DNA from: Alphaproteobacteria bacterium
GTDB lineage: Bacteria; Pseudomonadota; Alphaproteobacteria; UBA828
Assembly: GCA_022820945.1 (NCBI GenBank)
Contig: JAJEEP010000178.1
Span: forward strand, 60,653 to 124,652
Direction of reading: 5' to 3'
DNA: 64,000 nucleotides
In this document: positions 2,598 through 56,931 of the stretch, one piece after another
How the letters are laid out: every line of letters starts with the position of its first letter
How positions within the stretch are numbered: the stretch's first letter is position 1
Program-made: the position numbers and the translations under genes
Notes under the pieces: model-generated
Databases searched by the model: none
The model's input: the letters and a program-made list of their open reading frames with translations, nothing else
Told to the model about the DNA's origin: nothing

Positions 2598-2616
2598 CGG
2601 CCGGCAGGTCCGGCCG

Positions 2617-3564
2617 ATGACCCGAAAGCCGCTTCTCTTCGCCTCGCTGGCGCTCTGCCTGCTCGCATTCGCGGGCTGCAGCGAGGTGGAGCTTGCTCTT
2701 CATGTCGTCAAAAAGTTCAACCTGGAGACAAAGGAGGAGGAACCGCCGGTCCGCGTCGCGAAGCCGCATTACAAGCTCGGCTCGCCCTACCAGATCAATC
2801 ACGTCTGGTACTATCCGAGCTACGATCCCAACTACGACAGGACGGGCGTCGCCTCCTGGTACGGGCCCGCGTTCCACGGCCGGCCCACGGCGAACGGTGA
2901 GCGCTTCGATATGAACGGGGTGACCGCCGCGCACCCGACCTTGCCGCTTCCCAGCCGGGTCCGCGTGACCAACCTCGAAAACGGGCGGCAGCTGGAATTG
3001 CGGGTGAACGACCGCGGTCCGTTCGTCGACGACCGGATCATCGACCTGTCCCGCCGCGCCGCGCAGCTTCTCGGCTTCAAACGCAAGGGCTTGGCCAAGG
3101 TGCGCGTCGAGTACCTCGGGCTGGATCGCCTCAAGCCACCGGCTGCGCCACAACCCGCCGGCCAGCCGGTCGTCGTTGCCGCCGTCGCGCCCGACTCTCC
3201 GCTCAAGCCTCGCTGGACGAAGCCGCCGAACGGAACGGTAGTGCTGCCGCCGGACAAGCCGGGAGGCCTGGCGGCAAGCGTAGACCCGCCCCAGGCGCCG
3301 AACCGTGAGGCTGCCAGCGTCGCGTCACGGAGGCTCCTGGTCGAAGCGGCGGTCCTCCGCGGGCGCGACGAGGCCGACCTTCTGGGCGAACGGGTGCGCT
3401 CGCTTGGCGCCGTCGCGGTGAAGCCGGAACGGCGCAACGGCCGCGTGGTCTACGCGGTGCGCATCGGCCCGGTAGACACGGACGACGAGGCGGAGTTCAT
3501 CCTGGCCGAGCTCAATCGCGCAGGGTTCACCGGTTCGCACATCGTCGCTGCGGGGTATCGCTAG
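2617..3564 (+). CDS. rlpA: septal ring lytic transglycosylase RlpA-family lipoprotein with C-terminal SPOR domain
   Basis: ATG at 2617 inside ORF 2506..3564. Lipobox LLAFAGC. Double-psi barrel motifs ASWYGPAFHGRPTANGERFD and RVTNLENGRQLELRVNDRGPF. SPOR-like C-terminus YAVRIGP. Confidence 0.85.
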   Translation: MTRKPLLFASLALCLLAFAGCSEVELALHVVKKFNLETKEEEPPVRVAKPHYKLGSPYQINHVWYYPSYDPNYDRTGVASWYGPAFHGRPTANGERFDMNGVTAAHPTLPLPSRVRVTNLENGRQLELRVNDRGPFVDDRIIDLSRRAAQLLGFKRKGLAKVRVEYLGLDRLKPPAAPQPAGQPVVVAAVAPDSPLKPRWTKPPNGTVVLPPDKPGGLAASVDPPQAPNREAASVASRRLLVEAAVLRGRDEADLLGERVRSLGAVAVKPERRNGRVVYAVRIGPVDTDDEAEFILAELNRAGFTGSHIVAAGYR

Positions 3565-43710: not shown

Positions 43711-43941
43711 ATGTCGTCAACGGAAGCCCGCCTACGGACAATCATCAGCGACAGCTTCGACCTGGATCACGAGCCGGATTTCGATCGCGCGTTCAGTGAC
43801 GCCGGAGTCTCCTCGGTGGAAGCGGTTGCGTTTTACAAGACGGTCAATCAGGAGTTCGGCCTCAACATGGTTGCGGAGGACTGCCTGCAGTTCAATACGT
43901 TACGGGAGCTCCAGACGTATATCGATGCGCGCGCCGGGTGA
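43711..43941 (+). CDS. free-standing acyl/peptidyl carrier protein (phosphopantetheine attachment site DAGVSS)
   Basis: ATG at 43711 inside ORF 43600..43941, preceded by GGGAGA. The 76-aa sequence MSSTEARLRTIISDSFDLDHEPDFDRAFSDAGVSSVEAVAFYKTVNQEFGL fits the four-helix carrier pattern, with Ser in the DxGxxS position. Confidence 0.7.
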   Translation: MSSTEARLRTIISDSFDLDHEPDFDRAFSDAGVSSVEAVAFYKTVNQEFGLNMVAEDCLQFNTLRELQTYIDARAG

Positions 43942-44115: not shown

Positions 44116-45015
44116 ATGACGACAGAAGCGGTTTGGGAAATACCCCGGCCCCTTTCAACGCTGGATGTCCGCCTCGACGCCGATACAGTCGTCGCGGTGC
44201 GGCGGCACGGCAATCCGTCCGGCCCCAGGATCGTGCTGAGCCACGGCAGCGGACTCGCTGCCGACCTCTATTATCCGTTCTGGTCCCTGCTCGCGAACGA
44301 CTTCGACCTGATGGTCTACGACCTCAGGAACCACGGTTGGAACAGCGTCGGCGCCCAGAAGGATCACAATGTTCCGACCATGATCCGCGACCACGACATC
44401 ATTCTCGAGTCCATCGACAGCACCTATGGAAGCAAGCCGACCGTCGGCATGTTTCACTCGCTGACCACGGTCGTGACGCTGCTCTCGTTCAGCAAGCTCT
44501 ATTCCGCGTTGGTTCTCTTCGATCCGCCCCTGACCAGGCCCGGCGCGAGCCATACGGAGCTTCACGACGCCGCCGAGCGCGGCGCGGCTCTGATTCGGCG
44601 GCGGGGACAACACTTCAGGAGACGGGAAGACTTTATCGAAATTCTGGGAATCTTTCCGACCTTCAAGCGCGCCGTTCCCGGCGTACACGAACTCATGGCC
44701 CGCACGACGCTCCGAGAATCTGCAAGCGAGGAAGGCTATGAGCTTCGCTGCCCCCGCGAGTACGAAGCGCAGATGATGGATTACGCCCGGAGCTTCTTCC
44801 CGCTGCTGGACCTCGACCTGCTCGACTGCCCGACGAAGATCATCGGCGCCGATCCCACCCTGCCGCACGCGTACTTGCCGACGCTCGACCAGCGAATTGT
44901 CTCGGCCATGGACTACGATTTCATTCCCGAAGCGACACACTTCCTGCAACTGGAAAAACCCGCGGAGTGCGCGGCCGTTACCCGCGAGTTCATGGAGCGG
45001 CACGGCCTCTCTTAG
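44116..45015 (+). CDS. alpha/beta-fold hydrolase with a non-canonical nucleophile elbow (F-H-S-L-T)
   Basis: ATG at 44116 inside ORF 43990..45015. The oxyanion region is IVLSHGSGLAADLYYPFW. The elbow is VGMFHSLTT in place of GxSxG. The C-terminal PEATHFLQLEKP supplies the usual catalytic His context. Confidence 0.7.
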   Translation: MTTEAVWEIPRPLSTLDVRLDADTVVAVRRHGNPSGPRIVLSHGSGLAADLYYPFWSLLANDFDLMVYDLRNHGWNSVGAQKDHNVPTMIRDHDIILESIDSTYGSKPTVGMFHSLTTVVTLLSFSKLYSALVLFDPPLTRPGASHTELHDAAERGAALIRRRGQHFRRREDFIEILGIFPTFKRAVPGVHELMARTTLRESASEEGYELRCPREYEAQMMDYARSFFPLLDLDLLDCPTKIIGADPTLPHAYLPTLDQRIVSAMDYDFIPEATHFLQLEKPAECAAVTREFMERHGLS

Positions 45016-45062: not shown

Positions 45063-48000
45063 CTATTGGCCAGGCATCGGCAACCAAAAGCGCCGGCGCT
45101 GGAACGGATAGCCGGGCAGGGAGATGCGCCGCCGGGTCTCGCCGGCGAAAAGCCCCGAGAAGGAGACGCCGAGCCCCGCCTCGTAAGCCAGGGCGACCGC
45201 CTCCACGAAGGCACTGTCGGCAAGTTCTGCCGCCTCCTCCTCGCCACCAGCCGACTGCCGCTGGCTCGACAACATCTTCGGCGCGGATATGTTTTCCCCT
45301 GACTTCGGCCAAGCCTCCGCCAGCAGCGGCGCCAGTGCAGCATCGGGGCCGATCTCGATGACGACCTCCACGCCCAATTCCGCCAAGTTACCGGCACAGG
45401 CGTCGATTGCGAGTGGAGCGCCCGCCGCCTGGCGGTGCCAGTACGCCCCATCCAGTACCTGGTCCGGATCCATCGCGCGGCCGGTGAGGCCGCTCATCAG
45501 GCTGACTGACGGTGCGGCGAATGCGATGCCTTCCAGCGCCGCCTCTGTAACGCTTCTCGCCGCTGCCAGCCGCAACCCGTCCTCCAGGCTGACCACGCCG
45601 GCGGCCTGTGCCGCCGCGATCTCGCCCGCGCCCTGCCCGGCCACCACGCTCGGCCGGATGCCGACGCTCGCCCACAGTGCCGTGAGCGCGCACGCCAGTG
45701 CGTAGGTTGCGGGCCGCGCCCACGCCGGATCGCTCAGCCCTCCCTCGGAGCCGGGTCCGCCGAACATCGCTTCGAGCAGCGAGGCCTCGCGATCCTCCCC
45801 GAGTACCGCATCGCAACGGTTGAGCACGGAGCGCACGACCGGCTCGCGCGCGAAGAGCGCGCCGCCCATGCTGACCCACCGGTCGGTCTCGCCGGTGTAG
45901 ACGAACGCGATCTTCTTCGCCGCTCCCGGGTCACGCTCCGCGTCCGCATGCGCGTGCGCGGTGAGGCTCTTTCGCAGCGATGCCGCGTCCTGGAACACCA
46001 CGCCGGCCCGGTGGCCGAAGTGGCTGCGGCCGACGGCGGCCGTCCAGGCCATGTCCGAGAGCACGGTGTCGGACGCGGCGCCGTCTGCCGCCAACGCGTC
46101 GGCGTGCTCGTCGAGCCACGAGAGATATCGTCCTGCCAGCGCCCGGAGCGCCTCGCCGGACTTGGCCGAGAGCGGCAGCAACCGCGTGTCGCGCGCGGAG
46201 AAAGCCTCCTCGGACGGCGTCAGACTCGCGAGCGGCTCCGGCAGGGTCGCTGCGACGCTCTGTGCGGCGCCCGCATACGAATGCCCTTCGTTGCCCTCGG
46301 CCGGGGTGCCATTCGTCGGCCCGTACCCCTCCAGCACGACGTGCGCGTTCACGCCCGAAATCCCGAAGGCGCTGACCCCGGCACGGCGCGGCCGCCCCGC
46401 CTCCTCCGGCCAATCCGTCGTCTCCGACACCACCCGCACCGGCAGCCGGTCCCAGTCCAGGTGTGGATTGGGCTCATGGAAGTGCAGGTTCTTCGGAATT
46501 GCACCGTGCCGCATCGCCAGCGCGACCTTGATCAGGCCGGCAACGCCCGCCGCCGATTCCAGATGACCGAGGTTGGTCTTGACCGAGCCGATGAGCAGCG
46601 GGCGGTCAGGGCTCCGCTCCCGGCCATAGACCACAGCCGCCGCGTTCACCTCGATAGGATCGCCCAGCCCCGAACCGGCGCCGTGCGCCTCCAGATAGTC
46701 CACGTCCGACGGCAAGACCCTCGCCTGTGCGAGCGCTTCCTCGATCACCCGCTCCTGCGCCGGGCCGTTCGGCACGGTCGGTCCCGCGCTCGCTCCGTTC
46801 TGGTTGACCGCCGCCCCGCGGATCACGGCCCAGATGCGGTCGCCGTCGGCCTCCGCCTCGGTGAGCCGCTTGAGGACGACCATGCCGCAACCCTCGCTCC
46901 GCACGAAGCCATCCGCCGCGGCATCGAAGGTCCTGCAACGGCCGGTCCGCGACAGCATTCCAAGCGCTGCCATCTCGACGGTGAGCCCAGGCGACAGCAC
47001 AGCGTTCACGCCGCCCACCAGCGCCATGTCCACCTCGCCCTGCCGCAGGCCCGCGACCGCCTGCTGCACCGTGACCAGCGATGCCGCGCAGTTGAGCATC
47101 ACCGGATTGGTCGGCCCCATGAGACCCAGCTTGAACGCGACGCCGCCGACTGCGGTGCTGCTCGCGGTACCGAGATAGCTGAGGCTGTCGTTACCGGCCA
47201 ACATCATCAGGTCGCGGTATTCGCTGGTGGAGAGCCCGGCATAGACCCCGGTGCGGCTCCCCCGCAGACAGTCCGGATCGATCCCTGCGTCCTCGAGCGC
47301 CTGCCAGGTCGTCTCCAGGAGCAGCCGCTGCTGCGGGTCCATCATGCGCACACCGATAGGCGTCATCCCGAAGAAGCGCGCATCGAAGCGGTCGATCCCG
47401 TCGACGAAGCCGCCTTGTCTCCAGGGACGGTCGTCGGCTGCCGGGTCGCCGGCAACGCCGGTCCAGATTCCGCCATCCTGGCGCCCGTCCGTCACCGCGT
47501 CGTGACCCTCTTCGAGCTGACGCCAGAAGGACTCCAGGTCCGCCGCACCGGGGAAGCGGCAGGCCATCCCCACGATGGCGATGCCGTCTTCCTCGCTCCG
47601 CATCGGCGCCTGCGGGCTCGGTTCGGTCGCAGACTCGGGGGCCGGGGCCGCGATCTCCTCGCCAAGCTCCCCCGCCAGATGGCCGGCGAGAACCAAAATG
47701 TTCGGATAGTCGAACACCAGCGTGTTCGGCGCCGCGTAAGCGCCGGAGAACGCGCGATTCAGGCGGTTCCGCAACTCGACCGCCATCAGCGAATCCATGC
47801 CGAGGTCGAAGAAGCCAACCGTCGGCGCCGGCGTCGACGGCAGCCGCAGCACCGCCTGCACCTCCTGCTGCAGGAAGGACACCAGGAGCTCCTCGCGTCC
47901 CGCCGCGGGTGTCGCGGCGAGCTGCGCTAGCAGGTCTTCCGACGAGGTCGCGGCTTCGTCGTCCGCAGACGCGTCGGAGAGTAGGTCCTCGAACAGGGGT

Positions 48001-51000
48001 GGGCGGCTCTCGAGGGCCTCGCCGAACGCTGCCCAGTCCGCCGTCAGCACGGCAGCGGCAGCGGTGTCCTGCCGCAGCAGACGGTCGAGCGCGCTGAAGC
48101 CCTGCTCCGGGGTGAACCAGCCGGTGCCCAATGCCTCCCGCCGCCGGGCGATGCGCTCGCGCTGCTCCTCCGCCTCGCCGAGCCCCGACCAGGCACCCCA
48201 GGCGATGGCCTGCCCGGGCAGCCCCAGCGCGCGCCGGTGGGCCGCGAGTTGATCGAGGAACGCGTTGGCCGCCGCGTGGTTGGCCTGCCCCGGATTGCCC
48301 AGAATGCCGGCCACGCTCGAGAAGATGACGAAGAGGTCGAGGTCGCGATCGGCAGTCGCGCGGTGAAGATGCCAGGCGCCCAGCATCTTCGGCCACAGCA
48401 CGGTCTCGAAGCTATCCCAGCTCTGGTTCCCGAGCGCGGCGTCGGCCAGCACGCCGACGCTGTGGATCACCCCGGCGAGCGGCGGCAGCTCCCGATCCAT
48501 TCGCGCGAGCATGGCATTGAGCGCAGCCGGATCCGTCACGTCGGCAATCTCGACCTCGATGCTGAATCCCCGGGCGCGCAGCGCTTCGATCGCCTGTTCC
48601 GCCGCCGCGTCAGGCGGCCTGCGGCCGTTCAGCACGACCGTGCCCGCGCCGCGCTCGGCAAGCCATTCGGCGAGCGCGCAGCCGATGCCGCCCAGGCCGC
48701 CGGTCACCAGGTAGGTTCCGTCCTGCCGCAGCCGGCCCGTCCTGAACGACGGCAAAGTCAAGACGATCTTGCCGATGTGCCGCGCCGCGCGCATGAAGCC
48801 CATCGCGGCGCTCGTCTCGGTGAGCGGCCATCTGGTGTGCCTGAGTGGCGCAAGCTCACCCGTTGCCATGCGCGCCAGCACCTCTTTCAGGGCCGCTCCC
48901 GGCCGAGCCGGGTCATGCTGCTTCAGGGTGTAGAGATCCAGGATCGAATAGGCGACGTCGGGCCGCAGCGCCGCCATCTCGCCCTCGCTCAGGATGTCCC
49001 GCCGGGCGAGCTCCACGAAGCGCCCGCCGTCCGCGAGGCAGGCGAGGCTCGCCTCGATGAAGCCCTCGCCGGTCAGGCTGTTCAGCACCACGTCGACCCC
49101 GGCACCGCCTGTGGCTGCGAGGACTTCCTCACCGAACGCAATCGAACGGCTGTCGAACACGTGCTCGACGCCGAGCGAGCGGAGGTAGGCCTGCTTGGGC
49201 GCGCTCGCCGTGGCGAACACCTCCGCGCCCGCAGCCTGCGCAAGCTGGATGGCCGCGAGACCGACGCCGCCCGCGCCGGCGTGAATCAGCACGCGGTCCC
49301 CGGCCTTCAGCCCGGCAAGCTCGTACGACAGCACGCATGTCACGAACACCGAGGGGATCGTGGCGAGCGCCGTCGCGGACACGTCCGGCGGTGCCACCGC
49401 CACAAGTTCCTCGCGCGTCACCACCTCCGGCCCGAAGGTGCCGAAGGCGAAGCCGGCCACGCGGTCACCCACTGAGACGGTAGTTACATCCGCACCGGTT
49501 TCGACGATCCGGCCGCAGAACTCCTCGCCGAGCAGTCCCTCCTCGACCAGGCCCATGGCCCGGAAGACGTCGAGGAAGTTGAGCCCGCAGGCTTCGACCG
49601 CGACGCGCACCTCCTTCGACTCCAGGGCACGCGCCGCCAGCTGCTGCACCTGCAGTGTCTCGGCTGCGCCGCCCTCGTCCGGCGCCAGCACCCAGTCCGT
49701 CTCCTCCGGCAGGACAAGACGCTCCGAGCCGGGGCCCGACCGCACCAGCCGGGCCGCTTGGCGGCGCCCCTGGCGGTGCGCGATGTGGTTCTCCGAATCC
49801 GGGAACAGCAGCTCGTCGGCGAGGACGGCCTGCGGCTCCGCTGCCTCGGGGTCGAGATCGAGCATCCGGGCCTGCAGCTGGGGCGCCTCCCGCGCCACCA
49901 CCTTGCCCAGGCCCCAAAGGGAAGCGCCGGCCAACTGCCCAACCCGCTCCCGCTCCAGCACCTGCGCACCCCGGGTGACGAACCAGAGGCCCTTCTCGGG
50001 CACGGCGTCCGCGTCTGCGATGCCCTGCACGAGCGCGAGCGCGCTTGCCGCCGCGCGTTTCGCATCCGCCGCCAGGTCTGCGGTCGTCGCATCCGCCCCG
50101 TGGCCGTCCTGCGCGACGAGGTGCACCGCCCCGGCTAAGGGCACGTCCGTGGGCAGGCCTTCGACGAGCGATCGCCAGGACTCGCGGCGTTCCATCTCGA
50201 CCGAAGCCGCAACGATCCCGGCCTCGTTCTCTGCCGCCGCGCCCGTGCCAGCCGCAACATCGCTGGCCAGCACCACCCGCTGGTTCTGGGCAGCCAGTTG
50301 CGCCGCGAGCGCCTCCGCCACGCCGCCCCGGTCGGCAGCCAGAATCCAGGCGCCCTCGGGCAGGTCGATCTCGGCCGGGCCCTGCGCCACGATCACGCCC
50401 CGATCCGGCAGGCCGGCCGTCTCCGACCGGTCCACGCCGAGAACCTCGGATTCCGTGAACCCCGCATCGGCCAGCCCCTGACGCCACACGTCGGGCCCGG
50501 CGAGGGCGTGGTTCGGGCGATAGCGATCGGCGAAGCGCCACCATCCGTCCAGCTGGCCGAAGATCAGGTCCATCCAGCCCCGGCCGCGCTGGTTCTCCAG
50601 CGCCACCAGCAGCCCCGACGGCGCCAGGAGCGCCCGGCAGTGGGCGAGCGTCTCGTCCAGATGGCGCGTGGCGTGCAGCACGTTGGCCGCGATGACCATG
50701 TCGTATGCGTGGGGCTCGAAGCCCTGCTCCACCGGATCCTTCTCGATATCCAGCACCCGGTAGTCGATCGACGCCTCGGCGCCGCCGAAGCGCGACTCCG
50801 CCTCCGCGAAGAAGCCCGCGGAGATGTCGGTATACATGAAGTTGAACCGTCCGGCCGGTAGCTCGGGCAAGATGGTTTCGGTCGCCGAGCCGATGCCGGC
50901 GCCCACCTCCAGCACGCGCAGACGCCGCCCGTCCGGCACGTCGTCCACGAGTGTGCGAACCACCTCGCCGATCATGCGGTTCGCCGCGCGCCAGACCGGC

Positions 51001-54000
51001 GCGAGCCGATACAGATCGCCGGCCGTCGGCTCCGCGTCGCCGAACAGCAGCGACAGCGGATCCTCTTTGCCGCGCAGCACCTCGGGCAGGGCACCGGCGC
51101 AGCGCCCAAACAGCCCGATCTCGTTCGCCGCGTGCGGGAAGCGCCCGGTCACCCCGTCCAGAAACGCCTCGGAATCGCGCGGCATTTCGTCCGGCAGCGG
51201 ATCGTTCGCTCCGATCGTCACGACGAAGCCCTTGTCCTGCACCTGCAACACGCCCGAACGAGCCAGGATCTCGAGCATCCGGCGAAGCAGATGCGCGTGC
51301 TCGGGTAGCACCTCGAGGCGCTCGCGCAGCTCCTCCGGATTCACGACCGCGCCTGCCCCGCGCTCCCACCCAAGTTTCTCCAACGCCGCGAGCGCATGGC
51401 ACCACGCCGCCCGCTCCATCTCCCCTTGCAGGTCGGTCTCGTCCGCGACCTCGACCCCCTCGTCGGTCAGATAGCGCGAGAACGGCTGCGAGCGGGCCGC
51501 CGCGGCGGACGGCATCGGCAGGAAGTCCGCCGGCAGCATGCCCGGCGGCAAGGCGCAATCACGCCAGACGACCTCGTAGAGCAGCTCGTCGATCCCTGCC
51601 ACACCCTCGAGCAGCGTCGCCCGCGTAGCCCGCTTCACCGTGAAGCCCGCCAGCTCCCCGATGAGCGTCCCGCCCTGGTCGTAGAGGCGAAGGTCGGCGG
51701 CATGAACCTCCGGCACTCCCTCCCTCTCGGCGTCCGCCTCCTCGCCGGCCCGGCCTTCCCTCACGGTCACGTGGCAGAGCAGGCGTTCCGGCACGCCTCC
51801 GGCCAGCCACAGCCGCTCCCACGCGAACGGGAGATAGGTGATCCCCTCCTCGCCTCCGTCCGGGCTGCGCGCTGCGCCGAAGGCCTGGAAACAGCCGTCG
51901 AGCACGAGCGGATGCACGTCGAGCGGGCCGCGCTCGAGCCCGGCAGGCAGCGCCACTTCGGCGATCGCCTCGCCCGGCCGTGCCCAGAGACCCTCCACCG
52001 TGCGGAAGGAGGGGCCGAGCTCGATCCCGACGGCGGCCTTGGCGCGGTAGTAGGCGGCGAGGTCAACCGGCGCGAGCGCAGCCTTCAGCCCCTCGATATC
52101 GAGCGGTGGGCCAACTTGCGCCGGGCCGGCAGGACTCGTCGAGACGCGGCCCTCCGCGTGCAGCGACCATGCGTCCTCGCCCTCGCCCCGGCTGAGGATG
52201 CGGACCCGGCGAGCCACCTCGTCCTCGGCATCGTCGAGCAACACCTGCACCCGCCGGCCCGCTTCGGCGGAGTCGTCCTCGGCGTCCTCGCCAGCGAAGA
52301 CCAGCGCGCTCTGCATCTGGAAGTCGTCGATGACGACCGCCTCGCTCCCTTCGGCTATGGAGGCCGCCGCGGCCATGGCGCCATAGAGCGCGCCCGGCGC
52401 GATCAGCCGGCCGAAGACGCGGTGGTCGGCGAGCCACGCAGGATCGGAGGGGAAGACCTCCGTATCGAAGGCGATCTCGCCGCTGGCGGAGTCGTGGCGC
52501 GTACCCAGCAAGGAGTGGCCGGCAGCCGTCCGCCGCCGCTTGGGCGCCTCGACCCAGTAGCGCTCGCGCTGGAAGGGATAGCCCGGAAGCGCAATCCGGC
52601 ACCGCTCCTCGCCCGCGAAGAGCCCGTCGAACCGTAGCCGGAGCCCCGCTTTGTATGCGCCGGCGACAGCCTCGACAAAGCCGCCGCCGGAACCCGGCGC
52701 AGGCGGCTCCTCATCCTTCGCCGGCCGAATCAGGCTCGACATCACCGCCGGTGCGGTCCCGGCCGTCTCAGGCCACGCCATGGTCGTCATCGGACCCAGC
52801 ACGGCATGGGGACCGATCTCGATGACCGCATCGACGCCGACTTCCGCCAGCGTCTCGATGCAGGCGCGGAAGGCCACGGGTTCGCGCGCCTGGCGCCGCC
52901 AGTACGCCGCATTCGGCGCCTCGCCCGATTCCAGCGCACGGCCGGTCAGGTTGCTGACGAAGGTGACGGACGGCGACGCGAAGGGGATGGTCGAGATCGC
53001 GGCTTCCATGTCGCCCAGCGCCGGCTCGATCATGGCGCTGTGGTAGGCAGGGCTCCTGCGCAGCCGCGCGACACGGACCTCCTCCGCCTCGAAGCGCGCG
53101 AGCAGCGCCTCCACGTCCGCCTTGGAGCCGCTCACCACCTGGTGAGCGCCGTTGTCTGCCGCGACGCTCAGGCCCGGCCCGTCCGACGCCGCGTTCTGTT
53201 CCTCCACTGCTGCGGCCACGCGGGGTGGCGGCGCGAAGATAGCCCCCATCGCGCCCTCGCCGGGAAGCGCGCCGATCAGGCTTCCCCGCGCCGCCGCGAA
53301 ACGCAGGCCCTCCTCCAGGCTGAAGACGCCGGCGGTGTGCGCAGCCGCGATCTCTCCCAGGCTATGTCCCAGCACCACGTCCGGCCGGACGCCGATGCTC
53401 TCCCAAAGCGCCGCGAGCGCGCATTCGAGCGCATAGATCGCCGGCTGCTTCCACTGCGGATCGTCCAGTTCGCCCGCTGCGCCGGGCCGGCCGAACATCA
53501 CGTCCAGCAACGAGGCGCCGCCTCTGTCCTCCGCGAGCACCTTGTCGCAGCGGTCGAGCACTGCCCGGAACACCGGCTCGCTCGCATAGAGCGCTTCGCC
53601 CATGCCGGGCCACTGGCTCGCCTGCCCAGTGCAGACAAACGCGACCTTCGTCGCCTCGGGCGAGGTCGGTCCCTCGTCCGCCTCGACAATCGCCCGCAAA
53701 CCCTCCCGCAGCGACTCCGCGTCCCGGAACGCCACCCCCGCCCGGTGGCCAAAGTGGCTCCGGCCGATGCCGGCCGACCATGCCATGTCGGAGAGCACGG
53801 GATCGGACGCCATGCCCTCGGCCGCAATCGCCTCCCCATGTTCGTCGAGCCAATCGAGATGGCGTCCTGCCGCGTCGCGAAGCGCCGCCGCCGACTTTCC
53901 GGAGAGCGGCAGCAGGCGCGTTCCGCGCGGGGCAAGCCCTCCCGCTGCCTGCGCAGGCCCGCCGACCGACGCCGGCAGCGAGACTTCGACCGGCCGCGCG

Positions 54001-55427
54001 GCGCCCGTGGCCCACCCGGCGCCGTTCGGCGCGCCGTATCCCTCCAGCACGACGTGGGCGTTCGTCCCCGACCAGCCGAACCCGCTCACGCCCGCCAGTG
54101 GTGCGCGGTCTGCACGGGCGGGCCACGGCGTCGGCGCGGACGTCACCTGCAGTGGCATCCGTTCCCAGTCCATCTCCGGATTGGGGTTGCGAAAATGGAG
54201 GTGCCTGGGGATGACCCGCCGATTCATCGCCAGCACGGTCTTTATCAGCCCCGCGACGCCCGCCGCGGATTCCAGATGGCCGATGTTGGTCTTCACCGAG
54301 CCGATCAGCAGTGGGCGGCGGGCGTCCCGACCCTGCCCGTAGACCGCCGCGGTCGCGTCGATTTCGATCGGGTCGCCTACCTCGGTGCCGGTCCCGTGCG
54401 CCTCCAGATAGTCGATATCCAATGGCCGGACTCCGGCCCGCTCGAGCGCCGCTCGGATCACCCGTTCCTGCGCCGCCCCATTCGGAACCGTCAGACCCTG
54501 GCTCGCCCCGTCCTGGTTCAGTGCTGTGCCCCGGATGACCCCCCATATGCGGTCGCCGTCGGCCTCCGCATCGGTGAGCCGCTTGAGCACCACGATGCCG
54601 CAGCCCTCGCCCCTGACATATCCGTTGGCGGAGGCATCGAAGGTCTTGCATTGGCCATCCGGCGCCAACATCCCCGCGTTGGCCCGAAACTCCAGAAGCC
54701 GACCGGAGAGAATGACGTTTACCCCGCCGGCGAGCGCGATGTCCGCATCGCCCCGCTGCAGGCCCGAGACTGCCTGGTGCGTCGCGACCAGGGATGACGA
54801 GCAGGCGGTGTCCACTGCCATAGCCGGTCCCCCGAGCCCGAGCGCGAAGGCGACCCGGCCGATGGCCGTGTTGAGGGACGTGCCGGTGACCGCGTAGAGA
54901 CTGGCGGCAGGTTCGGCAGACCCCGCCTCCTCGCTGGCCTCCAGGATCAGCCCCCGGTAGTCGTTGTTGCTGATCCCCGCGTAGACGCCGGTACGGCTGT
55001 CCTTCAGCAGATCGGGATCGATGCCCGCGTCTTCGAGCGCCCGCCAGCTCGTTTCCAGGATCAACCGTTGCTGAGGGTCGAGCAGTTGCGCTTCCACCGG
55101 CGAAATGCGGAAGAAGGCGGCGTCGAACCGTTCAATGACGTCGGGGTCGAGATAGGCGCCGAAACGGCAGGCCTGGATCTGACCCGTATCGTTGGGGAAA
55201 AGCGCGCCGATACGCCCGATGCCGGAGCCCGGCACGCCCTCCTGCACGGCGTTCCCGCCCTCTTCGAGCAAACGCCAGAAGGCGGAAATGCCGTCGGCGC
55301 CGGGGAAGCGGCAGGCCATGCCGACGATCGCCACGGGCTCGTTCGACCCATAGCTTCCCGGCGTGCGACCCTCGTCAGGAGCGCGCGCGTCGTCGGCGCG
55401 ATTGCCGGGCGCTTCTCGTTCCGTCAT
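45063..55427 (-). CDS. type I polyketide synthase, 3454 aa, domain order KS-AT-DH-cMT-(psiKR)-ER-KR-ACP-KS-AT0
   Basis: A single uninterrupted ORF. All domain motifs were read from the translation (see the domain features below). RBS GGGAGA lies upstream of the ATG at 55427. There is no loading module, TE or second ACP. Confidence 0.95.
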   Translation of the reverse strand: MTEREAPGNRADDARAPDEGRTPGSYGSNEPVAIVGMACRFPGADGISAFWRLLEEGGNAVQEGVPGSGIGRIGALFPNDTGQIQACRFGAYLDPDVIERFDAAFFRISPVEAQLLDPQQRLILETSWRALEDAGIDPDLLKDSRTGVYAGISNNDYRGLILEASEEAGSAEPAASLYAVTGTSLNTAIGRVAFALGLGGPAMAVDTACSSSLVATHQAVSGLQRGDADIALAGGVNVILSGRLLEFRANAGMLAPDGQCKTFDASANGYVRGEGCGIVVLKRLTDAEADGDRIWGVIRGTALNQDGASQGLTVPNGAAQERVIRAALERAGVRPLDIDYLEAHGTGTEVGDPIEIDATAAVYGQGRDARRPLLIGSVKTNIGHLESAAGVAGLIKTVLAMNRRVIPRHLHFRNPNPEMDWERMPLQVTSAPTPWPARADRAPLAGVSGFGWSGTNAHVVLEGYGAPNGAGWATGAARPVEVSLPASVGGPAQAAGGLAPRGTRLLPLSGKSAAALRDAAGRHLDWLDEHGEAIAAEGMASDPVLSDMAWSAGIGRSHFGHRAGVAFRDAESLREGLRAIVEADEGPTSPEATKVAFVCTGQASQWPGMGEALYASEPVFRAVLDRCDKVLAEDRGGASLLDVMFGRPGAAGELDDPQWKQPAIYALECALAALWESIGVRPDVVLGHSLGEIAAAHTAGVFSLEEGLRFAAARGSLIGALPGEGAMGAIFAPPPRVAAAVEEQNAASDGPGLSVAADNGAHQVVSGSKADVEALLARFEAEEVRVARLRRSPAYHSAMIEPALGDMEAAISTIPFASPSVTFVSNLTGRALESGEAPNAAYWRRQAREPVAFRACIETLAEVGVDAVIEIGPHAVLGPMTTMAWPETAGTAPAVMSSLIRPAKDEEPPAPGSGGGFVEAVAGAYKAGLRLRFDGLFAGEERCRIALPGYPFQRERYWVEAPKRRRTAAGHSLLGTRHDSASGEIAFDTEVFPSDPAWLADHRVFGRLIAPGALYGAMAAAASIAEGSEAVVIDDFQMQSALVFAGEDAEDDSAEAGRRVQVLLDDAEDEVARRVRILSRGEGEDAWSLHAEGRVSTSPAGPAQVGPPLDIEGLKAALAPVDLAAYYRAKAAVGIELGPSFRTVEGLWARPGEAIAEVALPAGLERGPLDVHPLVLDGCFQAFGAARSPDGGEEGITYLPFAWERLWLAGGVPERLLCHVTVREGRAGEEADAEREGVPEVHAADLRLYDQGGTLIGELAGFTVKRATRATLLEGVAGIDELLYEVVWRDCALPPGMLPADFLPMPSAAAARSQPFSRYLTDEGVEVADETDLQGEMERAAWCHALAALEKLGWERGAGAVVNPEELRERLEVLPEHAHLLRRMLEILARSGVLQVQDKGFVVTIGANDPLPDEMPRDSEAFLDGVTGRFPHAANEIGLFGRCAGALPEVLRGKEDPLSLLFGDAEPTAGDLYRLAPVWRAANRMIGEVVRTLVDDVPDGRRLRVLEVGAGIGSATETILPELPAGRFNFMYTDISAGFFAEAESRFGGAEASIDYRVLDIEKDPVEQGFEPHAYDMVIAANVLHATRHLDETLAHCRALLAPSGLLVALENQRGRGWMDLIFGQLDGWWRFADRYRPNHALAGPDVWRQGLADAGFTESEVLGVDRSETAGLPDRGVIVAQGPAEIDLPEGAWILAADRGGVAEALAAQLAAQNQRVVLASDVAAGTGAAAENEAGIVAASVEMERRESWRSLVEGLPTDVPLAGAVHLVAQDGHGADATTADLAADAKRAAASALALVQGIADADAVPEKGLWFVTRGAQVLERERVGQLAGASLWGLGKVVAREAPQLQARMLDLDPEAAEPQAVLADELLFPDSENHIAHRQGRRQAARLVRSGPGSERLVLPEETDWVLAPDEGGAAETLQVQQLAARALESKEVRVAVEACGLNFLDVFRAMGLVEEGLLGEEFCGRIVETGADVTTVSVGDRVAGFAFGTFGPEVVTREELVAVAPPDVSATALATIPSVFVTCVLSYELAGLKAGDRVLIHAGAGGVGLAAIQLAQAAGAEVFATASAPKQAYLRSLGVEHVFDSRSIAFGEEVLAATGGAGVDVVLNSLTGEGFIEASLACLADGGRFVELARRDILSEGEMAALRPDVAYSILDLYTLKQHDPARPGAALKEVLARMATGELAPLRHTRWPLTETSAAMGFMRAARHIGKIVLTLPSFRTGRLRQDGTYLVTGGLGGIGCALAEWLAERGAGTVVLNGRRPPDAAAEQAIEALRARGFSIEVEIADVTDPAALNAMLARMDRELPPLAGVIHSVGVLADAALGNQSWDSFETVLWPKMLGAWHLHRATADRDLDLFVIFSSVAGILGNPGQANHAAANAFLDQLAAHRRALGLPGQAIAWGAWSGLGEAEEQRERIARRREALGTGWFTPEQGFSALDRLLRQDTAAAAVLTADWAAFGEALESRPPLFEDLLSDASADDEAATSSEDLLAQLAATPAAGREELLVSFLQQEVQAVLRLPSTPAPTVGFFDLGMDSLMAVELRNRLNRAFSGAYAAPNTLVFDYPNILVLAGHLAGELGEEIAAPAPESATEPSPQAPMRSEEDGIAIVGMACRFPGAADLESFWRQLEEGHDAVTDGRQDGGIWTGVAGDPAADDRPWRQGGFVDGIDRFDARFFGMTPIGVRMMDPQQRLLLETTWQALEDAGIDPDCLRGSRTGVYAGLSTSEYRDLMMLAGNDSLSYLGTASSTAVGGVAFKLGLMGPTNPVMLNCAASLVTVQQAVAGLRQGEVDMALVGGVNAVLSPGLTVEMAALGMLSRTGRCRTFDAAADGFVRSEGCGMVVLKRLTEAEADGDRIWAVIRGAAVNQNGASAGPTVPNGPAQERVIEEALAQARVLPSDVDYLEAHGAGSGLGDPIEVNAAAVVYGRERSPDRPLLIGSVKTNLGHLESAAGVAGLIKVALAMRHGAIPKNLHFHEPNPHLDWDRLPVRVVSETTDWPEEAGRPRRAGVSAFGISGVNAHVVLEGYGPTNGTPAEGNEGHSYAGAAQSVAATLPEPLASLTPSEEAFSARDTRLLPLSAKSGEALRALAGRYLSWLDEHADALAADGAASDTVLSDMAWTAAVGRSHFGHRAGVVFQDAASLRKSLTAHAHADAERDPGAAKKIAFVYTGETDRWVSMGGALFAREPVVRSVLNRCDAVLGEDREASLLEAMFGGPGSEGGLSDPAWARPATYALACALTALWASVGIRPSVVAGQGAGEIAAAQAAGVVSLEDGLRLAAARSVTEAALEGIAFAAPSVSLMSGLTGRAMDPDQVLDGAYWHRQAAGAPLAIDACAGNLAELGVEVVIEIGPDAALAPLLAEAWPKSGENISAPKMLSSQRQSAGGEEEAAELADSAFVEAVALAYEAGLGVSFSGLFAGETRRRISLPGYPFQRRRFWLPMPGQ
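45318..45917 (-). other. PKS domain AT0: degenerate acyltransferase remnant (aa 3171 to about 3370)
   Basis: GQGAGE replaces GHSLGE (Gly3266 stands in place of the nucleophile, nt 45630-45632). YTGETDRW replaces TGQASQW. About 89 residues, covering the small subdomain and the xAxH His, are missing relative to AT1. The protein then ends at LPGYPFQRRRFWLPMPGQ. Confidence 0.8.
46323..47588 (-). other. PKS domain KS2 (aa 2614-3035); Cys-His-His retained but motifs divergent
   Basis: Contains IAIVGMACRFPG. MLNCAAS (Cys2780, nt 47088-47090) replaces DTACSSS. EAHGAGSGLGDPIE replaces the HGTGT motif. KTNLGHLESAAG is present. Confidence 0.85.
47658..47915 (-). other. PKS domain ACP (about aa 2505-2590)
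   Basis: GFFDLGMDSLMAVELRNRL; Ser2546 is at nt 47790-47792. Confidence 0.9.
48108..48716 (-). other. PKS domain KR (about aa 2238-2440) with the catalytic Tyr replaced by His
   Basis: Contains TYLVTGGLGGIGCALAEWLA, Lys in WPKMLGAW, and Ser in FSSVAG. The expected NYAAANAFLD motif reads NHAAANAFLD (His2384, codon CAC, nt 48276-48278). Confidence 0.85.
48753..49655 (-). other. PKS domain ER (about aa 1925-2225)
   Basis: Contains VRVAVEACGLNFLDV, the NADPH motif VLIHAGAGGVGLAAIQLA, and ends HIGKIVLT. Confidence 0.85.
50388..51110 (-). other. PKS domain C-methyltransferase (about aa 1440-1680)
   Basis: SAM motif I is VLEVGAGIGSAT (Leu1506). Motif II is YDMVIAANVLHAT. Motif III is LLAPSGLLVALE. 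Boundaries are approximate. Confidence 0.8.
51633..52517 (-). other. PKS domain DH (aa 971-1265)
   Basis: HxxxGxxxxP appears as HRVFGRLIAP (His1002). Also has YYRAKAAVGIELGPSF and the DxxxQ motif as DGCFQ. Confidence 0.85.
52788..53648 (-). other. PKS domain AT1 (aa 594-880); catalytic motifs intact
   Basis: Contains FVCTGQASQWPGMG, GHSLGE (Ser689, nt 53361-53363), an Arg in the AAARG context, PAYHS and VIEIGPHAVL. Confidence 0.9.
54036..55337 (-). other. PKS domain KS1 (aa 31-464)
   Basis: Contains VAIVGMACRFPG, DTACSSS (Cys209, nt 54801-54803), EAHGTGTEVGDPIE and KTNIGHLESAAG. Ends NAHVVLEGY. Confidence 0.9.
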
Positions 55428-56173: not shown

Positions 56174-56626
56174 CTACCTCGCCCTTTGGCTCACATCGAA
56201 CGGGTCATGAGTCGACAGTTCCGGAAAGAGGGAAAAATCGCGATCCCGCGTGAACAGCACCTCTACGCCATGCGTGACACACACTGCAGCGATGCGGGCA
56301 TCGTGAACCACTCCGCCGACGACGTGCGGTCGGTTGACGAACCTCTCCAGCACTTCCATGAAATCGTCCGTCTCGCCAATCATGCGGTTGGATGGCGACA
56401 TTGCCCAAGCCTGGAACTGGCGCCACGCTTGGCCCGGCGTGGTTGCTTCGTCCTTCCAGATGCGACGGTTCGTCACCACGCTCAGGAACTCGTAACAGCA
56501 TGGCCACGGAATGGCCCAGACACGGTCTCCTTCGGCAAGTTCGGTCATGACTGCGTGCGCCGCGTCGCCCAGGCGCGACTCGCGACGGTGCGCATACACC
56601 AACACATTGGTGTCTACGGCGATCAC
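56174..56626 (-). CDS. vapC: PIN-domain ribonuclease toxin VapC
   Basis: GTG at 56626 overlaps the vapB stop (GTGA). The sequence is [13 protein letters not shown]...[23 protein letters not shown], with the conserved acidic residues of PIN domains. Confidence 0.85.
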
Positions 56627-56871
56627 CGCGTACCGGAATCGCCGTAGATCATTTCGCGCAACTCCGGCCAGGAATATCGTTCCAGCGGATCGGCCGCTTC
56701 CGGGTCGCCCACTCTCATGTCCGTCAGCTTGTATCCGCCGCGAGGCCTCGCCGACGCAAGCACGCAACGAAGCCCGTCCTCGACTACGGCGCGCAGCGGG
56801 CGCCCCGTTTCCTTGGCATGACGCTTGGCTCGCGCGAGCAATTCGTCGTGGATGTCCAGCGTCGTCTTCAT
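56623..56871 (-). CDS. vapB: type II antitoxin VapB-like
   Basis: 82-aa [38 protein letters not shown] is typical of antitoxins paired with PIN toxins. Confidence 0.8.
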
Positions 56872-56931
56872 TGTCCCATACTAGCCATAGTGTTTAATAT
56901 GGGGAAGACATATCTCAACGGCAATTCGTAC

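Follow-up and report, generated by a model that had tools for sequence, protein, structure and literature searches.

The DNA analysed here is a window of 64,000 nt of contig JAJEEP010000178.1 from the assembly GCA_022820945.1 (Alphaproteobacteria bacterium, UBA828), and our subject is the end of a large type I polyketide synthase (PKS) encoded on its minus strand. The open reading frame translates to 3454 amino acids, and its coding frame is backed by a G/C content at third codon positions (GC3) of 0.86. Pfam recognizes a ketosynthase (KS), an acyltransferase (AT), a dehydratase (DH, matched by PS-DH), a C-methyltransferase (cMT), an enoylreductase (ER, matched by ADH_zinc_N), a ketoreductase (KR) and an acyl carrier protein (ACP, matched by PP-binding), followed by a second KS and a partial AT. 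These last two, which we call KS2 and AT0, occupy together with the linker between them and the post-AT linker residues 2614-3454 (45066-47588, minus strand). A sequence-only reading of the window had described this terminal didomain as a KS with its catalytic residues kept, joined to an AT that had lost its own. The features of the gene are the following:

45063..55427, minus strand: supA-type type I PKS gene, KS-AT-DH-cMT-ER-KR-ACP-KS2-AT0 (open reading frame, 3454-aa translation, Pfam, 114 full-length homologues)
52593..55337, minus strand: KS1-AT1, the active paralogue, with DTACSSS, HGTGT, GHSLGE and PAYHS (59% identity to KS2-AT0)
47640..47910, minus strand: cis ACP, approximately residues 2515-2590, with Ser2546 in LGMDSLM (Pfam PF00550 at residues 2518-2584)
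46338..47582, minus strand: KS2, residues ~2616-3030 (Pfam PF00109/PF02801)
47088-47090, 46683-46685 and 46563-46565, minus strand: KS2 catalytic codons for Cys2780, His2915 and His2955, respectively
45918..46337, minus strand: KS2-to-AT0 linker domain, residues ~3031-3170 (Pfam PF16197, PF22621 and PF22336; AlphaFold model like KS-AT didomains)
45312..45917, minus strand: AT0, residues ~3171-3372, large subdomain only (AT1/AT0 alignment; PF00698 positions 2-134, FabD positions 2-117)
45630-45632, minus strand: Gly3266 in place of the nucleophilic Ser of AT0
~45546-45554, minus strand: AT0 deletion junction, near residues 3292-3294 (alignment and DNA register shift)
45066..45311, minus strand: post-AT linker, ending in LPGYPFQRRRFWLPMPGQ, with the stop codon at 45063-45065 (aligns with the post-AT1 linker)

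The synthase and its family

Searching with residues 2614-3454 only, we matched 2286 proteins; among the best 120 of them nearly all are about 3450 aa long and carry the same set of Pfam domains. The family statistics given below refer to an alignment of 114 of these best 120 full-length homologues. The attachment Ser of the cis ACP is present in 114/114, and a linker of about 30-35 residues leads from this ACP to KS2. In none of the longer homologues inspected is the post-AT linker followed by an ACP, a thioesterase (TE) or a reductase (R) domain. The KR of the family carries a peculiarity: its catalytic Tyr (YAAAN motif) is replaced by His2384 (GQANHAAANAF; window 48276-48278, minus strand). 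As all 114 homologues have His at this position, the exchange is a family trait and not a local mutation, and the KR is at the same time the most conserved domain (mean identity 0.84).

To see where such synthases occur, we surveyed the 80 best loci in a species-representative genome collection. All of them lie in metagenome-assembled genomes (MAGs), which probably belong to sponge-derived series, and their identity to the query is 56-87%. One of the samples bears the label ROBB21. The hosts include Alpha- and Gammaproteobacteria, Latescibacterota, Gemmatimonadota, Chloroflexota/Dehalococcoidia, Nitrospirota (Nitrospira), Acidobacteriota, Binatia, Rhodothermales, Thermodesulfobacteriota and Candidatus Spongiisocius. 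KS2-AT0 itself is 56-70% identical between bacteria of different phyla (loci L004-L083). Such cross-phylum identity is far above the expectation for vertical descent, which implies, as far as sequence comparison can tell, that the entire cassette was spread by repeated horizontal transfer within one habitat.

The phylum spectrum of the relatives matches that of the published sponge-specific sup KS clade, which has no characterised member and is found mostly in Gemmatimonadetes and Alphaproteobacteria (bioRxiv 10.1101/2023.01.09.523365); its restriction to sponges is described repeatedly (PMC4245539, PMC3908369, bioRxiv 10.1101/2023.01.09.523365). SupA and the sup cluster go back to Fieseler et al. 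2007 and Hochmuth et al. 2010 (as cited in PMC3908369, PMC4245539). Sup enzymes are small mono-modular PKSs resembling fatty acid synthases (FAS) that dominate KS amplicons of high-microbial-abundance sponges, and the product proposed for them, never demonstrated, is mid-chain methyl-branched fatty acids (PMC4245539, PMC3908369, PMC9864124, PMC6151786). Our protein fits these descriptions in several respects: its relatives occur, like the sup KS clade, in uncultivated bacteria of many phyla; it is a single FAS-like module with a methyltransferase on one protein of 3454 aa; and its KS1 carries both sites of the DPQQR/HGTGT primers (LLDPQQRL and EAHGTGT; HGTGT in 113/114 homologues). Such amplicons would come from KS1, since KS2 has HGAGS instead. 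No protein named SupA was among the matches when full-length, KS1 amplicon and KS2-AT0 queries were run against a collection of 5.8 billion proteins; the matches carried generic PKS/SDR labels only.

Because cross-phylum distribution and architecture fit the published descriptions, we assign the protein to the SupA-type PKSs as a probable member. Published SupA, known from fosmid clones from Aplysina aerophoba and Theonella swinhoei (pAPKS18 and pSW1H8 among the clones), is also said to end in KS-AT. The terminal KS-AT0 is the normal, conserved ending of Sup-type synthases, a point that the sequence-only reading had missed, and the family as such is already known and not a discovery. A larger variant of the family exists as well: P0026 (4348 aa) carries a Sup-like core after an extra N-terminal ACP-KS-AT-ACP and likewise ends in KS-AT.

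KS2 and the remnant of its acyltransferase

The residues first pointed out in KS2 are all found in the translation: Cys2780 in MLNCAAS, His2915 in HGAGS and His2955 in NLGHLESAAG, i.e. Cys, both His and GHLESAAG are kept, with MLNCAAS and HGAGS standing where DTACSSS and HGTGT are usual. All 114 homologues have the Cys and the second His, and 112 of them have the first His; the unusual context L-N-C-A-[AS]-S is itself family-wide. In a separate alignment of 59 sequences the Lys of VKTNxGH (KxNxGH) and the Phe of FG are invariant in KS2 as well. By these residues KS2 has the Cys-His-His and Lys that mark a decarboxylating, elongating KS. It lacks the hallmarks of KS0, KSQ or chain-length-factor domains, in which the HGTGT His is lost or the Cys is replaced by Gln; KS2 keeps both His and the Cys throughout the family. 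Mean pairwise identity is 0.78 for KS2 and 0.82 for KS1. Judged by the homologues, purifying selection acts on KS2 as strongly as on KS1 and has preserved its Cys, both His and the Lys, so that in terms of its sequence KS2 has every residue needed for decarboxylative condensation.

The origin of the didomain can be read from a maximum-likelihood tree of 28 KS1, 28 KS2 and 13 outgroup KS sequences. KS1 and KS2 each form a clade (100% support for both) and the two clades are sisters (94%); therefore, as far as the tree reflects their history, one ancient internal duplication of KS1-AT1 gave rise to KS2-AT0 before the family radiated, and KS2 has been retained since without concerted evolution. 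This bears on the idea that the whole of KS2-AT0 is a decaying, functionless leftover of that duplication. AT0 is clearly degenerate, and in a few relatives the gene is interrupted close to the ACP-KS2 boundary, be it by stops, by frameshifts or by an insertion, as one would expect of such a leftover; against it, KS2 retains a mean identity across phyla almost at the level of KS1, its catalytic residues are invariant, and the didomain is present in 114/114 homologues since a duplication older than the family radiation. We regard this explanation as very improbable.

The interrupted relatives deserve a separate word, as matches of about 840 aa had seemed to represent KS2-AT0 as a natural separate gene. 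We rejected this candidate: on inspection they are broken copies, and because each owes its length to a frameshift, a TAG or an inserted gene, they are no clean evidence for a KS2-AT0 acting in trans. Two of them are frameshifted (L088:8309-10029 and L090:10001-10023). In a Bryobacterales locus (L091:9929-10001) one in-frame TAG falls within the linker between ACP and KS2, and the frame then continues into KS2. In a fourth (L089:7702-9962), a DruA gene (Druantia-type defence) and a 67-aa open reading frame are inserted on the opposite strand between ACP and KS2; this relative is 77% identical, has the same trehalose, GH15 and IlvD neighbours and also bears a frameshift in module 1. Some Sup genes may therefore be pseudogenes or split. 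A Rosetta-stone search for a fusion of the free ACP (described below) to KS2-AT0 found none, all longer homologues inspected ending at the post-AT linker.

Where AT1 has GHSLGE, AT0 has GQGAGE, so that the Ser and His are gone, and GETDRW stands in place of GQASQW, as the sequence-only reading had reported (GQxSQ changed to GETDR). Its count of 95 residues from the nucleophile position to EIGP in AT0, against 184 in AT1, is likewise reproduced (counted to the Pro). The pairwise alignment of the two ATs places a single gap of 89-90 residues opposite AT1 residues 717-806, with high identity on both flanks; it takes out the ferredoxin-like small subdomain and the His of PAYHS, the xAxH His whose loss had been proposed. 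The deletion boundaries agree with the profile alignment recommended at that time, in which the Pfam AT profile (PF00698) covers AT0 only at positions 2-134 of 319, and with the NCBIfam FabD model, which covers only positions 2-117 of 290. After the gap the post-AT linker LPGYPFQRRRFW is retained.

The losses are a property of the family. The deletion occurs in 114/114 homologues and the nucleophile position is Gly in 109/114; the equivalent of GQxSQ exists in 63 variants, and the site of the malonyl-binding Arg varies too. Sequence change in AT0 is much faster than in AT1: the mean identities of its two halves are 0.66 and 0.47, those of the matching parts of AT1 0.83 and 0.71. An AT0 with cryptic transferase activity through other residues might be imagined from the conserved elbow glycines and the preserved fold of the large subdomain. 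However, no His is conserved (the best reaches 50/114, at the position preceding the former Ser), the 114 homologues share no alternative Ser or Cys in the elbow region, the Arg position varies and the small subdomain, half of the active-site cleft, is absent; the Ser/His pair that would have spoken for a transferase is thus missing, and we give this idea hardly any credence. With the Ser replaced by Gly, the His region and small subdomain deleted and the Arg variable, AT0 cannot, on the strength of the family comparison, be a transferase, which upholds the earlier view that it is unable to form an acyl-enzyme. KS2-AT0 accordingly lacks what the AT of a functional cis-AT extension module requires (the Ser of GHSxG, the His further on in the sequence, the Arg), and no ACP follows it in cis.

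It had also been asked whether the shortened AT might be an artefact of assembly in this internally repeated gene. The gene does hold an internal repeat of 2.6 kb, and the genome is a MAG of 178 contigs. Yet the KS1-AT1 and KS2-AT0 copies of the repeat are just 73-76% identical in DNA, too diverged for an assembly collapse to be plausible. Moreover, the register between the copies moves from 7731 to 7464 nt, i.e. by 267 nt or 89 codons, so that the deletion is in frame, and it is seen in more than 100 independent assemblies, complete long-read chromosomes among them. We consider an artefact next to impossible.

What remains of AT0 was examined in an AlphaFold2 model of 841 residues (2614-3454), built on the 59-sequence alignment. 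Its mean pLDDT is 74, with the AT0 part mostly at 72-91. By Foldseek the model matches the KS-AT didomains of CurL (4mz0), Lsd14 (7s6b) and DEBS (2qo3/2hg4) with TM-scores of 0.65-0.73 at 30-35% identity. In a normal AT the small-subdomain region is a four-stranded sheet with two helices; at the corresponding place, from the post-elbow helix to the return strand, the model shows no more than a helix of four residues and a strand of three. For this reason AT0 is best read as a folded stump of the large subdomain, which the two linkers would keep in its usual place and which would buttress the KS. The earlier suggestion of a dead AT serving as structural scaffold gains from this, as large subdomain, KS-AT linker and post-AT linker are all retained in a predicted fold like that of the solved didomains.

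The free carrier protein and the hydrolase

Two genes on the plus strand lie next to the end of the PKS gene and are convergent with it:

43711..43941, plus strand: free-standing 76-aa acyl carrier protein with the attachment Ser in DAGVSSVE (Pfam PP-binding, translation)
44116..45015, plus strand: 299-aa alpha/beta hydrolase (Abhydrolase_6, Pfam)

The attachment Ser of the free ACP (G-V/x-S-S) is kept in at least 90% of its homologues. A derivation of the free ACP from the cis ACP was considered and rejected, BLASTP finding no similarity between the two; the genome also carries an ordinary ACP in a fab cluster elsewhere. The hydrolase homologues are 55-94% identical across phyla. The enzyme is atypical in that it has no GxSxG, its Ser lying in a G-x-x-H-S-L-T elbow instead, and the motifs HG (oxyanion), G-x-x-H-S, LFDPP (Asp) and T-H (His) are conserved in 66 homologues. 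Attempts to assign it to a family gave only weak matches to generic alpha/beta hydrolases, and no close solved structure was found (best E 0.001).

We counted how often the two genes accompany the synthase by running tblastn over the 80 loci, within 6 kb or less of the PKS end. The ACP was found in 63/80 loci, the hydrolase in 62/80 and both in at least 56/80, spread over about a dozen phyla. Three homologous loci illustrate that the arrangement itself varies, with ACP and hydrolase lying downstream and co-directional, upstream, or convergent. A phosphopantetheinyl transferase (PPTase) adjoins the PKS in two of the three loci inspected; in our window none lies beside the gene. Because the linkage survives the shuffling of gene order, there is good comparative evidence, within the reach of synteny, that PKS, ACP and hydrolase work together. 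The free ACP is probably the partner of KS2 and the hydrolase probably the off-loading enzyme. The carrier in trans that the sequence-only reading had postulated, this same 76-aa ACP, is thereby supported by the linkage of ACP and hydrolase in at least 56 loci and in three gene orders.

Just upstream of the PKS (window 56174-56880, minus strand) lies a pair of genes for a PIN-domain toxin and a VapB-like antitoxin; the Bryobacterales locus L001 likewise has a PIN/RHH (ribbon-helix-helix) pair upstream of its PKS. Elsewhere the same genome encodes another type I PKS/FAS-like protein, with a frame of 1997 aa (G000:C71:3978-5948, minus strand). It is 32-36% identical to KS2-AT0 and might be a synthase of the Swf/RkpA type, also common in sponge symbionts.

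The role of KS2 and comparison with known systems

Of the mechanisms considered, the one given by the sequence-only reading, a KS2 that acts on a carrier supplied in trans, agrees with the family comparisons and is the best available. We favour, with fair though not high confidence, a role of KS2 as a terminal condensing exit gate with the free ACP as malonate carrier and the hydrolase as off-loading enzyme. Module 1 (KS-AT-DH-cMT-ER-KR-ACP) would build a partly methylated acyl chain iteratively, and the cis ACP, some 30-35 residues before KS2, would pass a chain of the right length to Cys2780, its tether being like that of an ordinary inter-module junction. In a single decarboxylative Claisen condensation KS2 would then join this chain to malonate bound to the free 76-aa ACP, for whose loading we can only infer AT1 acting in trans or FabD of the cell, and the alpha/beta hydrolase would release or transfer the product. 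As exit gate KS2 would determine how long the chain becomes and thereby where its methyl branch lies.

The same parts can be ordered differently, with KS2 at the start. The free ACP would then bring a pre-made fatty-acyl primer, possibly charged by the hydrolase as an acyltransferase; KS2 would condense this primer with malonate that AT1 had placed on the cis ACP, and KS1 would iterate from there. In favour of such a scheme, the synthase has only one active AT and one cis ACP, the two KSs differ in active-site context, a primer of fixed length would readily explain mid-chain methyl branches, free and cis ACP are unrelated, and some loci have the genes for ACP and hydrolase upstream of the PKS. 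The position of the cis ACP speaks against it: in assembly-line PKSs an ACP tethered just before a KS is normally its chain donor, and the linker here has the usual inter-module length. Moreover, the neighbourhoods inspected hold no conserved acyl-ACP ligase or loading AT. We therefore think a starting role unlikely.

KS2 could also act without elongating, as a gatekeeper or transacylase comparable to the KS0 domains of trans-AT systems; the finished chain would then change from the cis to the free ACP with no condensation taking place. The atypical LNCAAS/HGAGS context, the want of a functional AT in its own module and the absence of reducing domains after it would suit this role. KS0 domains characteristically lose the HGTGT His, however, and the retention of both His in 112-114 of the 114 homologues, along with the Lys and the FG Phe, is hard to explain without decarboxylation, so that we see this role as rather improbable.

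Several points weigh against the condensing exit gate as well. In about a quarter of the loci, the 6 kb downstream lack the free ACP and the hydrolase; part of these loci stop at a contig end, and others carry the two genes upstream. In which direction the chain flows between cis ACP, KS2 and free ACP cannot be read from synteny. As its context (L-N-C-A-A-S, H-G-A-G-S) is unusual, the chemistry of KS2 may depart from standard elongation, and as the KR Tyr is His in all 114 homologues, the reducing chemistry of module 1 is uncertain. Finally, the literature surveyed holds no biochemical data on any Sup enzyme, and the product is only predicted (PMC6151786, PMC4245539).

Going one step further, KS2-AT0, the divergent ACP and the atypical hydrolase may form a dedicated exit module that selects one chain length and branch pattern, extends the chain on a separate carrier by a last C2 unit that stays unreduced, and delivers the result to a different pathway (for example type II FAS or lipid assembly). 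This is a tentative proposal that we hold to be possible but doubtful. If true, it would explain the mid-chain methyl branches in sponge symbionts, and the LNCAAS site and the Tyr-to-His exchange of the KR would mark a chemistry so far undescribed for PKSs. In PKS surveys of high-microbial-abundance sponges Sup genes predominate; they occur in about a dozen phyla with no demonstrated product, and what the Sup pathway makes depends on the roles of KS-AT0, free ACP and hydrolase. The residual interest of the locus lies in the chemistry of KS2, the invariant His of the KR and the atypical hydrolase.

With SupA as described the protein shares the single reducing module with C-methyltransferase and the occurrence in many phyla. 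Of small accessory genes, those for a carrier protein and a hydrolase adjoin it here. SupE is a permease (PMC3908369), and no permease was seen in our window, nor does a PPTase lie beside the gene; in the features compared we found no other departure. Compared with DEBS modules 3 and 5, CurL and Lsd14 (2qo3, 2hg4, 4mz0, 7s6b), the KS fold with Cys-His-His, the linker, the large subdomain of the AT and the wrapping post-AT linker are common to all, whereas AT0 has no Ser-His dyad, no Arg and no ferredoxin-like small subdomain, KS2 reads LNCAAS and not DTACSSS, and no cis ACP follows. The KS0 modules of trans-AT systems with their vestigial AT-docking regions are alike in having a KS without a working AT and partners in trans. 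They differ in that KS0 loses the catalytic His that KS2 keeps, that they retain the flanking subdomain only while AT0 retains most of the AT large subdomain, and that here the absent partner is an ACP and not the AT alone. Module 1 resembles the iterative, fully reducing type of the mycobacterial MAS-like synthases (PDB 5bp1 and 9d2z are among the matches); these have no second KS, and their methyl branches come from methylmalonyl-CoA and not from a cMT domain. Pks13 offers a comparison for a KS that acts as terminal condensing domain, since it joins two lipid chains with the help of separate carriers; unlike in our synthase, an active AT, two cis ACPs and a TE accompany its KS.

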